IMG/VR virus record: IMGVR_UViG_3300032223_002784
Span: 27,985-91,984 of that record
DNA length: 64,000 nucleotides
Reading direction: 5' to 3' (one strand)
Origin: a virus
Both the position numbers and the translations under genes were made by a program. Positions 59,959-64,000 of this stretch are shown here, in pieces. The first letter of the stretch is position 1; each line of letters opens with the position of its first letter. The notes beneath the pieces are model-generated. The model saw only the letters and a list, made by a program, of their open reading frames with translations, was not told the DNA's origin and made no database searches.

Positions 59959-60674
59959 TGAATAATTTACCAGAAGGATACCTTCCATATCTTGATAAAG
60001 GATATGTGGGTTTAGTAAATCATATGGGTACAGACTTAGATATAGCAAATTCTGCAAGAGTCTCATATAATAAACAATCATCACTTACCCCCGAAGGCGA
60101 ATTGAGTCAGCGGGACGGGAAGTTAATTGATTTCCTTTGGAAAGAAGAACATACTTCACCATTTAGACATGCAGTTCTATCATTTGAAATTTATGCACCA
60201 CTTATGGTTGCAAGACAACATTGGAAATATGCAGTAGCATCTACATTTGTTGATGATCAAAACGGATGGAATGAGTCGTCAAGGAGATATGTAACTGAAA
60301 ATGAAGAATTCTATATACCAAGTCCATATTCTTGGAGATCTGCCCCTGAAAATTCAAAGCAGGGATCTGGAGAACCAATTACTTCTGGCTTTGGAATAGA
60401 CTTAACTACAAAACTTAACAAGTATGCCGAAGAAGGAATGGTATTGTACAACCAAGCCCTTTCAGTAGGCGTAGCACCAGAGTTAGCAAGATTATTTTTA
60501 CCTGCATATGGAATGTATGTCAGATATCGTTGGACAGTGAGTTTGCACGGAGTAATGAATTTCTTAGAACAAAGACTTCCTCATGATGCACAATACGAGA
60601 TACAAGAGCTTGCTCGTCAAGTGAGCGTTTTGGCAGAAGAGAAGTTTCCTCATAGTTTGAAATTGATCAAATAA
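59958..60674 (+). CDS. thyX: Flavin-dependent thymidylate synthase
   Basis: ANSARVSY, HTSPF, ARQHWKY...NESSRRY, ARLFLP, AQYEI. Confidence 0.93.
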   Translation: MNNLPEGYLPYLDKGYVGLVNHMGTDLDIANSARVSYNKQSSLTPEGELSQRDGKLIDFLWKEEHTSPFRHAVLSFEIYAPLMVARQHWKYAVASTFVDDQNGWNESSRRYVTENEEFYIPSPYSWRSAPENSKQGSGEPITSGFGIDLTTKLNKYAEEGMVLYNQALSVGVAPELARLFLPAYGMYVRYRWTVSLHGVMNFLEQRLPHDAQYEIQELARQVSVLAEEKFPHSLKLIK

Positions 60675-61156
60675 TGGATTTTCTACCCATAGTCAACAAT
60701 AGGTCTTGCGGAACTTGTACAAAGTGCTGTGAGGGCTATTTAAAGGCCGATATCAAGGGAAAGATGATGGGTATAGACGATGACGGTAAAGTGGTTCCAT
60801 GTCAATTTGTCAAAATAGGAGAAGGATGCGGGTCTTATGCAGATAGGCCTATTAGCCCATGTCAGATATTTAAGTGCGACTGGCTCACAAATGAGCAAAT
60901 GCCAGAAACATTCAAACCTTCAATAAGTAATTCTATATTCTCTACTCGTACAATAAGAGGAGTAGAGTACACCATGCTCATTGAGGCGGGACGGAAACTG
61001 GATGCAGAAGTTCTGTCTTGGGCCATATCATATCATCTGGAAAATGGATCAAACTTTGCCTGGAGGGTCTTAGGCAACATATTCTGGATAGGCTCAGAAG
61101 AATTTAATAAAATGATGGATGAAGACTATCCGCTTTTAGAGCCATCACATGGTTAA
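60674..61156 (+). CDS. CxxCxxCC (YkgJ-like) metal-cluster protein
   Basis: CGTCTKCC...C...C..Y.DRP..C..F.C. Confidence 0.75.
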   Translation: MDFLPIVNNRSCGTCTKCCEGYLKADIKGKMMGIDDDGKVVPCQFVKIGEGCGSYADRPISPCQIFKCDWLTNEQMPETFKPSISNSIFSTRTIRGVEYTMLIEAGRKLDAEVLSWAISYHLENGSNFAWRVLGNIFWIGSEEFNKMMDEDYPLLEPSHG

Positions 61157-61391
61157 AGTCTGGATAGAAAGAGCCTATATAGAGCCACATGACCCAAATG
61201 AAGACAATTTTAGTATAACGATCCACCTTGACAATATCTTGGTAGGTAAGGTAACATTAGATAATCCCAAATCTTGGCTGTATACTATTAGTAATGAAGA
61301 TGGTGATTTGGTTATAAACAATTCGGCGGGGATGGAAGCCAAAAAGTGGGATCATATTACTAAAGAAATACTAGGAGAGATAGATGAGTGA
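61149..61391 (+). CDS. Hypothetical protein
   Basis: Coupled ORF. Confidence 0.6.
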   Translation: MVKVWIERAYIEPHDPNEDNFSITIHLDNILVGKVTLDNPKSWLYTISNEDGDLVINNSAGMEAKKWDHITKEILGEIDE

Positions 61392-61668
61392 ACTAAAGGA
61401 TCCAAATAAGCCAGAAGGAACATATATGGCTATAATGGAGAATATGCGTGAACTTCTAGGTGCTATATATATCCAAGAGATGCGTAACTATGATATGTTA
61501 AGTATTATTGCAGATAAGCTAGGTGCGGATGCTAAGGGACTTAGCCAATTGCACACGCAAGGAGAAGTCCTTGCTCCTCCCGCCTCTTTTATATTTGAAG
61601 AAGAACAGTCAGCTGAAGCTGACCTACAAGACTCTTTGCTTCAGGAAGATATGACAAATGAGAATTAG
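61384..61668 (+). CDS. Hypothetical acidic protein
   Basis: Coupled ORF with GGAG RBS. Confidence 0.65.
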   Translation: MSELKDPNKPEGTYMAIMENMRELLGAIYIQEMRNYDMLSIIADKLGADAKGLSQLHTQGEVLAPPASFIFEEEQSAEADLQDSLLQEDMTNEN

Positions 61669-62437
61669 TGATATTGTAAGCGATATGTATTATGGTCCTG
61701 TTGAAGACTCATATGGTATTCATACCAACAAGTATATTTTTTTTATTCCTAAGTCTGGTTTTGCACATCTTAAAAAAGGTTTAGAAGCACATTATATCCA
61801 AACAGAGTATCTCCTTGAATGTACTGATGAAGAATTGTCTGAATTAGGCAAACAAAGACCTAGGAGATCTTCTCTAGAGGAAGTTAACTATCAGATAGAG
61901 AGAAAAGAGTTTGATCTAGCTCATATAAAGGCTAGTAATCTTATTTCTAGACTCCCCGTCTTTTCACAATCAAGAAATCGCAATGGAAAACAACATATTG
62001 CTGATAAAAGATGGAGAGATGCTCTTAAAAATGAAAATCCAAAGGTTTTATCTCTAATTGAATACTACAAATATGAAGAAAATTTTATAAAAGCTACTTT
62101 TCCTGATGTAGAATGGACAAAAGGCACATTTGCTATCTCTCCATGCCATATTTATCCTGCTAAAAAGGATAGAGGAGAAGATTCTTGGACTCCCGACAAA
62201 ATTTTAAGAGATTTAAGCCTTGTAAATAAATGTTTTGATAAAATTTCAGCTTCTCCACTAAATGGAAAGCATGCTGTATCTATAGAAGATGCAAATATTG
62301 CTCTTGATTATCTTGATCTATTTGATTTTAATGATCTTTCTGTATCCCGCCAAGCTTTGTATCTAATTTTATCTAATAGAGTCGTTGATGGCTTCTATGA
62401 AAACTTTGATTTTACAGATATTGATCTAGGAATTTAA
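61658..62437 (+). CDS. Hypothetical protein
   Basis: 259-aa ORF, no recognised motif. Confidence 0.7.
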   Translation: MRISDIVSDMYYGPVEDSYGIHTNKYIFFIPKSGFAHLKKGLEAHYIQTEYLLECTDEELSELGKQRPRRSSLEEVNYQIERKEFDLAHIKASNLISRLPVFSQSRNRNGKQHIADKRWRDALKNENPKVLSLIEYYKYEENFIKATFPDVEWTKGTFAISPCHIYPAKKDRGEDSWTPDKILRDLSLVNKCFDKISASPLNGKHAVSIEDANIALDYLDLFDFNDLSVSRQALYLILSNRVVDGFYENFDFTDIDLGI

Positions 62438-62568
62438 AAATATAATTCTTTTTCTTCATACAATTTTATTTTCAGCTCTTTTGCGTGTAATCCACAATAT
62501 CTAAACACTCCATATATACAATGGATTGTTTCCAGATGTTCCCGCCAACATTTATCACAAGATTGCAT
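62434..62568 (-). CDS. 44-aa leaderless Cys/His (zinc-finger-like) protein, not in ORF track
   Basis: MQSCDKCWREHLETIHCIYGVFRYCGLHAKELKIKLYEEKELYF; TGCTACAAT ends 7 nt before the ATG. Confidence 0.55.
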   Translation of the reverse strand: MQSCDKCWREHLETIHCIYGVFRYCGLHAKELKIKLYEEKELYF

Positions 62569-62604
62569 ATCATTATTGTAGCATTTCTGCCGCTGATCTT
62601 ATAA

Positions 62605-62620
62605 TGTGACGTGCGTCACA
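62605..62620. promoter_or_regulatory. Perfect CRP-type box
   Basis: TGTGA-cgtgcg-TCACA. Confidence 0.7.
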
Positions 62621-62744
62621 CTAATTTCAAATTGATCAAAATGTTAATGGCCAATTATTTTGTATGATACACTTTTTGAAAAGGCATTCCAAAATTTTAT
62701 AGTGCGCCCGAAATGTCCGTTTTGATACCATTCCACGCTCATAA

Positions 62745-62843
62745 TGTGGTCTATATCACATAAAAAAGGCTGTTTTGGGCTTGACTTTTGTCTATTCGTT
62801 CTGTTATACTTACAGTATTGAAAGTTGATAAAGGTTATCAACT
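62745..62843 (+). promoter_or_regulatory. Composite early promoter 1
   Basis: TGTGG-N6-TCACA; TTGACT-18-TATACT; TGTCTA-N10-TATACT; leader hairpin. Confidence 0.75.
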
Positions 62844-62866
62844 AGAATAAAAGAAAGGTTCATAAA

Positions 62867-63079
62867 ATGAACACTATATATAATGAAATTAAAGATGAGT
62901 TTGGTGTAGAGGCTACTAGTGCCTACTATAAGACTCCCGTTCTACCTGTGCGTATCGCACAGCGTATAAATAATAAATACCCTAGCGAAATGGGTTCATC
63001 TCGTTTCACTACTACTCTAAATCCAAAGGCTGTGCTTATCGCTAAGCGATACATGAGCCTAGTAATGGGTGTCAAGTAA
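62867..63079 (+). CDS. Small early hypothetical protein
   Basis: GAAAGG RBS after promoter 1. Confidence 0.7.
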   Translation: MNTIYNEIKDEFGVEATSAYYKTPVLPVRIAQRINNKYPSEMGSSRFTTTLNPKAVLIAKRYMSLVMGVK

Positions 63080-63189
63080 TGACTATCCTTACCTATATCC
63101 TTCGTACTATCATGGTGCTATCTATAGTGCCACTCTCTCTACTTATGTATGCTATGTATCAAGATGTAAAGACATGGGGTAATGAATAA
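63079..63189 (+). CDS. 36-aa single-pass membrane peptide
   Basis: MTILTYILRTIMVLSIVPLSLLMYAMYQDVKTWGNE; TAATG coupling at both ends. Confidence 0.6.
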   Translation: MTILTYILRTIMVLSIVPLSLLMYAMYQDVKTWGNE

Positions 63190-63359
63190 TGAAAAGACTT
63201 ATAGTTATAGTGATGATAGCACTACTCATCCCTACCCCCGCCTATGCTAAGACATACCATACACCTAAGCACACAGTGCAACACTATGGATATACAGTGC
63301 ACAGATCTACACATATATATTGCCCATATACTGGTTGCAAGAAATCACTAAAACAATAA
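63189..63359 (+). CDS. 56-aa secreted peptide
   Basis: MKRLIVIVMIALLIPTPAYA|KTYHTPKHTVQHYGYTVHRSTHIYCPYTGCKKSLKQ. Confidence 0.6.
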   Translation: MKRLIVIVMIALLIPTPAYAKTYHTPKHTVQHYGYTVHRSTHIYCPYTGCKKSLKQ

Positions 63360-63366
63360 TAACGCA

Positions 63367-63397
63367 GGGCGTGTCTACTTGACATGCCCAGCTTTTT
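63367..63397 (+). terminator. Intrinsic terminator
   Basis: gggcgtgtc-tactt-gacatgccc followed by agcttttt. Confidence 0.7.
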
Positions 63398-63423
63398 GTG
63401 TCGGCGCACTCGGGCGTGTCGCA

Positions 63424-63541
63424 TGTGACTAAGAACACATACGCTGAGCGTCTCAGTATTTGGAATTACTGGCTAGTAAGTTGAAATTTGTCAGTACCCT
63501 ATGCTATAATTCCATTATAAGAAATTGACAAAGGTTGTCAA
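63424..63541 (+). promoter_or_regulatory. Composite early promoter 2
   Basis: TGTGA-N6-ACACA; TTGAAA-18-TATAAT; TGTCAG-N10-TATAAT; leader hairpin. Confidence 0.8.
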
Positions 63542-63566
63542 AGATTTATAAAGAAAGGAATTCAAA

Positions 63567-63779
63567 ATGAATTCACTAAATGAAATAACAGTAGTAGTAG
63601 AACCTACTCACCCTATGGCTAGTAGCAATACTAAGTCCCCTTTCCTATTCCGCCTTTCTAATGGTAACTACATTAGCCGTATGGCGTATGTCTATCTTGT
63701 AGCCTCTGAGGGTCTTATCTCTCACCGCTATCTTTCCCCTAATGAAAGTAAGTGGGTATTTGAACAGCGTGTGGCGTAA
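63567..63779 (+). CDS. Small early hypothetical protein
   Basis: GAAAGGA RBS. Confidence 0.7.
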   Translation: MNSLNEITVVVEPTHPMASSNTKSPFLFRLSNGNYISRMAYVYLVASEGLISHRYLSPNESKWVFEQRVA

Positions 63780-63836
63780 GTCACACCGCCCAACACGGCG
63801 TGTCGTGTTGATAATGTCAGACCCCTATGCTACAAT
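63770..63836 (+). promoter_or_regulatory. Composite early promoter 3
   Basis: TGTGG-N6-TCACA; TTGATA-17-TACAAT; TGTCAG-N10-TACAAT. Confidence 0.8.
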
Positions 63837-63869
63837 TCCACTATAAAGAAAAAGAAAAGAGAATTATAA

Positions 63870-64000
63870 ATGACTTACAGTTTTGATACAAAAACAGACC
63901 GCTGGGCTGAACTAGCAGACGAATACCAATCTATGTTAGATGAACTAAAGGAACTAGATACTGAAAGCGTATTTATTCCAACCGCAGATTTTGACGAGGA
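63870..64000 (+). CDS. Small acidic early protein, runs off right edge
   Basis: MTYSFDTKTDRWAELADEYQSMLDELKELDTESVFIPTADFDE... Confidence 0.6.
   Translation, partial: MTYSFDTKTDRWAELADEYQSMLDELKELDTESVFIPTADFDE

Follow-up and report, generated by a model that had tools for sequence, protein, structure and literature searches.

Two promoters at the end of a contig from an uncultured lake phage, P2 and P3, appear to open an array of hybrid promoters, which would drive the rightward small-gene arm of the phage genome. Each such promoter combines a WW-TGTCRG-W-S-S element (−28 to −19) with a strong −10 box that usually has TGn, exactly 10 nt separating the hexamer from the −10 box; the −35 box is optional. 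Judging from sequence comparison, we put the probability at roughly 0.6 that P2, P3 and their family are PafBC-type "−26 element" promoters read via the host activator PafBC. With this arrangement, the phage probably borrows the DNA-damage switch of its host for a block of small genes.

The window, that is, the whole stretch of DNA analysed (64,000 nucleotides), comprises bases 27985–91984 of IMGVR_UViG_3300032223_002784, a linear IMG/VR virus record of 91,984 bp that is 86% complete and has 37% G+C; the end of the window (64000) is the end of the contig. A crude gene map of the record shows a long leftward arm (~1.6–85.9 kb), which within the window holds structural genes and ribonucleotide reductase. 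From 85.9 kb onwards lies a rightward arm that is cut off by the contig end and whose tail is formed by three rightward genes at 36–976 of the record. The record breaks off 164 bp past P3, where the promoter array begins, and the P2 and P3 of the window are the truncated beginning of a larger array whose remainder is missing from the record. A related 110-kb contig, binned with a MAG labelled "cyanobacterium", ends in the same part of the genome, ~1 kb past its ribonucleotide reductase gene, while the record ends where that array begins; the repetition of the promoters may have fragmented both assemblies.

WhiB, which is used as a marker of actinophages (PMC10202952), was found above the Pfam cut-off in all six genomes searched, namely the record and five complete or near-complete relatives. 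Because all these phages encode WhiB, the host is an actinobacterium, and by its gene content the phage is an actinophage despite its low G+C. Its portal protein is 53–54% identical, over the full length, to those of Streptomyces phages of the Stanwilliamsviridae. In a search of sequencing runs, those holding the phage DNA were lake and freshwater metagenomes, and no RNA run was listed with it. Megablast of positions 60000–64000 against cultured phages gave no match, a distant blastn matched ThyX only, and blastn of the promoter region returned chance matches only. Relatives of the ribonucleotide reductase occur in MAGs of many phyla; we rejected these as a host clue, as they look like mis-binned phage contigs.

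All three sequences that the preliminary description had listed as promoters (P1–P3) are present on the plus strand, each with a gap of 10 nt between the upstream hexamer and the −10 box. P1 (62781–62810) consists of TTGACT (62781–62786) and TATACT (62805–62810) with an 18-nt spacer between them, in which TGTCTA (62789–62794) and a TGt are found. P2 (63481–63517) has TTGAAA (63481–63486) and TATAAT (63505–63510), an 18-nt spacer containing TGTCAG (63489–63494) and TGc, and a predicted start at the conserved A at 63517. P3 (63808–63843) has TTGATA (63808–63813) and TACAAT (63831–63836), a 17-nt spacer containing TGTCAG (63815–63820), then ACC, and TGc, and a predicted start at the A at 63843. 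TG stands at −15/−14 in all three. As had been pointed out, the −35 spacing differs between P2 (18) and P3 (17) at constant TGTCAG-to-−10 spacing. Furthermore, a 32-nt direct repeat underlies both P2 and P3, its two copies being 88% identical.

Behind each of the three promoters come a short leader, then a ribosome site of the GAAAGG type and then a small ORF that belongs to no known family. Downstream of P1, a leader hairpin (62823–62843, 9-bp stem, AAG loop; −8.0 kcal/mol, z −2.7) precedes the first small-gene operon, three ORFs of 70, 36 and 56 aa without a known family (62867–63359), which is closed by an intrinsic terminator (63367–63399, 9-bp stem followed by a T run) that separates the P1 and P2 units. 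P2 is followed by a leader hairpin (63525–63541, 7-bp stem, AAG loop) and drives a 70-aa ORF of no known family (63567–63779), and the first ORF driven by P3 (63870–64000) runs off the contig end; all these features lie on the plus strand. PHROG scans of the small ORFs behind P1–P3 gave no match.

Several further features were observed around these promoters. The leader hairpins of P1 and P2, with their 7–9-bp stems and AAG loops, lie directly past the predicted starts, and similar hairpins with differing stem sequences follow many promoters of the relatives, a pattern resembling compensatory change; they could be RNA stability elements or the site of a regulator. On the minus strand, a perfect consensus promoter (63541–63514; TTGACA, 16 nt, TATAAT; 12/12) is directed leftward from the P2 leader hairpin, so that it and P2 face each other; it may be due to chance or be an antisense promoter. 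In the gap ahead of the small-gene block lies a perfect TGTGA-N6-TCACA palindrome (62603–62618) of the CRP/GlxR type. Directly upstream of many array promoters in the relatives are hairpins that contain GCGTGTC and have no T run, probably the terminators of the preceding units; the hairpin ahead of P3 (63780–63812) folds weakly (z −1.4).

Within the window alone, the number of sites is no more than chance would give, with two matches to TGTCAG-N10-TAnnnT against 1.07 expected and 28/100 shuffles reaching two; the significance comes from the relatives. P2 and P3 are also the only such sites in the whole 92-kb record. The 18-nt core of their repeat led to three IMG/VR relatives, and a looser pattern scanned across IMG/VR found 67 loci with TGTCAG, nearly all with 33–40% G+C. 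As an empirical background, we replaced the hexamer of this pattern by TGTCGG or TGTCAC, which gave five loci in each case. The TGTCAC loci were single matches at chance level, and four of the five TGTCGG loci proved to belong to the same family, with mixed TGTCAG/TGTCGG arrays. In such mixed arrays of four IMG/VR relatives, TGTCGG accounts for up to 3/7 sites; different hosts or relaxed selection at −24 could produce the mixing.

A scan of the five complete or near-complete relatives (100–116 kb) for the motif found 10, 19, 16, 6 and 15 sites, as opposed to ~1 expected from shuffles. In each, all sites are on one strand and inside a single 5–14 kb stretch of the small-gene block. In one relative, this stretch belongs to a 19-kb rightward small-gene arm that converges on an 82-kb leftward arm with WhiB and the rest of the genome. 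The few recognisable products of the small-gene block (DUF932, GP88 and DUF1281_C) fit an accessory block of a putatively early type. The 10-nt gap is likewise conserved in further copies: in three genomes, 45 sites have a spacing of 10, compared with 1–4 sites at each of the spacings 6–9 and 11–15. The array was not seen in the Streptomyces relatives Blueeyedbeauty, Coruscant and BillNye, whose 0, 3 and 0 sites are similar to the controls. Nor was it found on a 57-kb related phage contig binned with an Aquiluna MAG, from which the small-gene arm may be absent.

In 58 related contigs, we found 362 unique sites. The family logo, WW-TGTCAG-W-S-S-...-(c/a)TGn-TAtAAT, also shows an A that is conserved seven bases past the −10 box; positions −35 to −31 stay below 0.35 bit, so that no −35 box is conserved. 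A −35 match of 5/6 or better occurs at 20% of the 362 sites, compared with 0.6% in a shifted control, and 73% of them have TG at −15/−14 together with a near-consensus TATAAT. Family sites with TGn and a strong −10 box could fire by sigma-A alone. We also defined the sites without reference to the hexamer, by W-S-S, TGn and TAnnnT only. At these sites, TGTCAG was found 157 times, TGTCGG 18, TGTCAC 3, TGTCAT 2 and TGTCTA 0 times, with all other hexamers at background. These counts indicate that the family element is TGTCRG and that the TGTCTA of P1 is no member. P1, which the preliminary description had taken as a degenerate third copy, is by its sequence an ordinary sigma-A-type promoter that scores 10/12 against the −35/−10 consensus with TG present; its TGTCTA fills the −26 position, yet is not among the variants used by the family. 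We also considered whether CTGACA, the reverse complement of TGTCAG, might be the −35 box of a divergent promoter, and rejected this, as nothing is conserved at the would-be −10 of such a promoter.

The published PafBC consensus is tGTCgg(N10)tA(N3)T without a −35 box, and the PafB helix-turn-helix (HTH) contacts −23 to −28, with R46 and R50 reading the GTC triplet (PMC8635444). The phage TGTCAG lies at −28 to −23, followed by N10 and TAnnnT, and so coincides with both the consensus and the contact region. Like the PafBC-dependent promoters of Mycobacterium, Streptomyces and other actinobacteria (PMC8635444, PMC6789036), known as RecA-NDp promoters and read by "sigma adaptation", the phage sites have TGTCRG with its GTC at −28 to −23, exactly 10 nt to TAnnnT, no conserved −35 box and the same W-S-S. 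They differ in what they precede, since the 6–19 phage sites per genome stand ahead of small genes without assigned function and not ahead of DNA-repair genes. They also differ in having a near-consensus TATAAT, mostly with TGn, where host PafBC promoters have a weak −10 box; in being A-rich at −31 to −29; in strongly preferring A over G at −24; and in that ~20% of them have a −35 box as well.

For a quantitative comparison, we used recA upstream regions from actinobacterial genomes (72 unique promoters); none of our claims draws on genomes flagged as unpublished. In the largest recA set, a strict TGTCRG-N10-TAnnnT precedes the recA domain at 60 of the 80 loci, and close variants occur at most of the others. 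The strict sites divide into 31 with TGTCGG and 29 with TGTCAG, and TGTCAC is typical of Acidimicrobiia. At −24, recA promoters have A in 49% and G in 50%, whereas the phage family has A in ~90%.

Flanks were compared at positions that the search pattern does not force, in 313 phage and the 72 recA sites. At −22, the phage sites have T in 69% and A in 25%, and the host recA sites T in 60% and A in 35% (T/A together, 94% and 95%). At −21, the respective frequencies are C 42% and G 47% in the phage and C 42% and G 57% in the hosts; at −20, C 51% and G 40% versus C 42% and G 56%, so that S fills −21 and −20 in ~90% of phage and 98% of host recA sites. At −19, the phage has C in 42% and T in 31%, and the hosts C in 65% and T in 19%. 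The triplets after the hexamer also rank alike, TGG being ahead of ACC in both sets and TGC and TCC also common. Moreover, in the same phages (63% A+T), W-S-S follows 81% of promoter TGTCAG hexamers but 4% of other TGTCAG. This agreement of the flanks is the strongest argument that one protein surface would read both the phage and the recA sites. Disagreement was seen at −30 and −29, where A reaches 73–77% in the phage and hosts favour T at −29, which we counted against PafBC as the reader.

As the preliminary description had suggested, we searched for pafBC in hosts, and plausible lake hosts carry both pafBC and a TGTCAG recA promoter. In eight small complete genomes (1.35–1.47 Mb, ~46–52% G+C around recA), the recA promoter reads TGTCAG-(T/A/C)(G/C)(G/C)...TAnnnT, as in TGTCAG-TGG...cTGc-TAccTT; TG precedes its −10 box in 7/8, and the promoter is immediately followed by a LexA box. 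One of the eight, G226, has a RecA with 97% identity to the RecA of a 'Ca. Planktophila' MAG. A tandem WYL pair is present in 5/5 searched Planktophila-type genomes and also in the Aquiluna MAG. In G226, the pair matches PDB 7P5X and 6SJ9 (PafB and PafC), and its reading helix, RMFERDK with R46 and R50, is intact. The strict motif has six matches in this genome, compared with one in the control, and precedes recA, a DnaQ-like exonuclease gene and a DUF6504 gene with an SOS box. At three G226 sites, two of them ahead of the genes for the exonuclease and for a trypsin-like peptidase and one ahead of an ORF without a known family, the start codon lies 6–7 nt past the −10 box, so that the transcripts would be leaderless. 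At another G226 site and at recA, a LexA box directly past the −10 box suggests dual control. TGTCGG was found in the recA promoters of the Aquiluna MAG and of three other small lake-sized genomes. On these sequence features, Nanopelagicales are a reasonable candidate host. Streptomyces recA promoters use TGTCAG too, although the cultured Streptomyces phage relatives have no array.

The proposed mechanism would run as follows. A constitutive host PafBC heterodimer would be activated by single-stranded DNA, the PafB HTH would bind the GTC of the element, and PafBC would bridge to sigma-A region 4 ("sigma adaptation"), thereby recruiting host RNA polymerase to the phage small-gene block. That PafBC is the reader, single-stranded DNA the trigger and the genes early are three steps that we infer. 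Several points weigh against this mechanism. It needs single-stranded DNA at the moment when the small genes are switched on, when the presence of such DNA would be hard to account for. Both window copies, like ~20% of the family sites, have a usable −35-like box, TTGAAA at 18 nt in P2 and TTGATA at 17 nt in P3, which a PafBC complex would not use. The near-consensus and mostly extended −10 boxes, with which sigma-A might act alone, and the missing array in the cultured Streptomyces relatives count against it as well. In addition, the flank of P2 after TGTCAG is TAC and not W-S-S.

An activator encoded by the phage itself was the other option raised in the preliminary description, which had placed a WYL-type gene outside the window; no WYL protein was found in the record or in the five complete or near-complete relatives. 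No sigma70_r2 domain was found in the phages, and phmmer with Planktophila-type PafB and PafC against all ORFs of the record and three complete relatives found no similar ORF. MotA_activ and T7-type RNA polymerase (PF00940) were likewise absent from six phage genomes in searches that had no positive control. The phage promoters carry a bacterial −10 box with TGn, which sets them apart from T7-type RNA polymerase promoters, and they differ from T4-type middle promoters both in the absence of MotA_activ and in the sequence of the box. Of the PafBC-type interpretation in the preliminary description, sequence analysis supports the published geometry, the TGTCRG tolerance, the recA-like flanks, the actinophage identity and the existence of plausible lake hosts, but neither the phage WYL activator nor the third copy.

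The most serious competitor, though an unlikely one, is that the "−26 element" is read by some other factor, either a host activator of the SiwR kind or an unrecognised phage protein. The latter might enter the cell together with the phage DNA or be produced from the leftward arm, and would act on this gene block in the manner of T4 MotA/AsiA or as a shut-off repressor. Actinobacteria do have more than one activator at −26, and SiwR uses a GGA triplet there (PMC10693628). Most phage ORFs are of no known family, which leaves room for an unrecognised DNA-binding protein; in the A-richness of −31 to −29 and in −10 boxes that are strong throughout, the phage sites depart from host PafBC promoters; and the lack of an array in the Streptomyces relatives is what a clade-specific phage factor would produce. 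However, the hexamer, its R degeneracy, the spacing and W-S-S all coincide with recA promoters, which is hard to explain with an unrelated reader. The searches for WYL, sigma, MotA, PafB/C-like and T7-type RNA polymerase genes (those for MotA and the polymerase without positive control) brought up no candidate, and Planktophila-type genomes have a single HTH-WYL pair.

We consider it improbable that the sites are plain sigma-A extended −10 promoters without an activator, in which TGTCAG was kept through descent from one duplicated cassette, perhaps captured from a host recA-type promoter. The 88% identity of the 32-nt P2/P3 repeat would fit such copying, and the TGn with a TATAAT-like box at 73% of sites is in general −35-independent. 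Furthermore, the leftward arm runs on TGGTATAAT-type promoters without TGTCAG. Across the 362 sites, however, TGTCRG, W-S-S and the spacing are constant, whereas the sequence that separates the element from TGn is free to vary. This pattern indicates selection on the constant positions and not recent copying. Moreover, none of the extended −10 promoters on the leftward arm has the element. A chance match in AT-rich DNA, to which the window's two matches against 1.07 expected would lend themselves, has a negligible probability and is refuted by the family data, with one-strand arrays, exact spacing and 67 loci versus five in the control scans.

The leftward arm has TGGTATAAT-type extended −10 promoters and a few of the TTGACA-N17/18-TATAAT type, all without TGTCAG, and this absence indicates that the element marks one gene class. 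Extended −10 boxes of the form TGGTATAAT, TGCTATAAT or TGATATAAT precede structural and other leftward genes. In the window, they lie a short way upstream of minus-strand genes with starts at ~22487, 32762, 36817, 46577 and 51679, often right after a G+C-rich hairpin and mostly without a −35 box, and they make up a second promoter class.

Known phage systems share parts of the proposed arrangement. The host-takeover module of SPO1 is an early-promoter array of a large lytic phage, built from ordinary sigma-A −35/−10 promoters. The arrays described here resemble it in having many close promoters on one arm, with one to three tiny genes each and terminators between them, and differ in that the conserved upstream element would be the box of a host activator. 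In coliphage 186 (tum), CTXphi and GIL01, phage genes are under the host SOS repressor LexA, at single sites in temperate phages, and act through repression and RecA-dependent release. There too, the site of a host regulator ties phage genes to the DNA-damage circuit of the host, but the box would here belong to an activator and is repeated in an array.

The middle promoters of phage T4 offer another parallel, with an upstream box at a fixed distance that replaces the −35 box for one class of phage genes; the MotA box at −30 and its adaptor on sigma region 4 ("sigma appropriation") have been compared with PafBC (PMC8635444). Whereas T4 brings its own MotA and AsiA, no MotA_activ, WYL or PafB/C homologue was found here, so that the adaptor would be the host's. 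The SiwR-dependent dinS promoter of M. smegmatis likewise has a WYL activator at −26 and a normal −10 box, but SiwR reads GGA in a 19-bp imperfect palindrome, in contrast to the non-palindromic TGTCRG of the phage (PMC10693628). A recent paper (PMC12848934) cites work in which pafBC is linked to mycobacteriophage resistance. PafBC "sigma adaptation" is so far known only as a host DNA-damage response, and our literature search found no paper describing phage promoters built on it.

A wider model, which we regard as rather doubtful in its entirety, would make host PafBC the master switch of the small-gene arm throughout this lake actinophage clade, triggered without −35 recognition by phage DNA entry or by host damage, for example from sunlight in surface water. 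With its 6–19 strong sites, each genome copy would titrate PafBC and weaken host repair and defence, and the phage WhiB, also acting on sigma region 4, could then redirect transcription to the TGGTATAAT promoters on the leftward arm.

If PafBC is indeed the reader, these phages would be the first class to run a whole gene block off the box of a host activator instead of its own MotA-like factor or a LexA operator, and infection of very abundant lake bacteria would be tied to DNA damage and the sensing of single-stranded DNA. The 362 sites would then be natural variants of the −26 element for dissecting PafBC specificity. The variant of the motif may, in addition, help to predict the hosts of uncultured actinophages, with TGTCAG pointing to Planktophila-type hosts, TGTCGG to hosts like the Aquiluna MAG and the three small lake-sized genomes, and TGTCAC to Acidimicrobiia.
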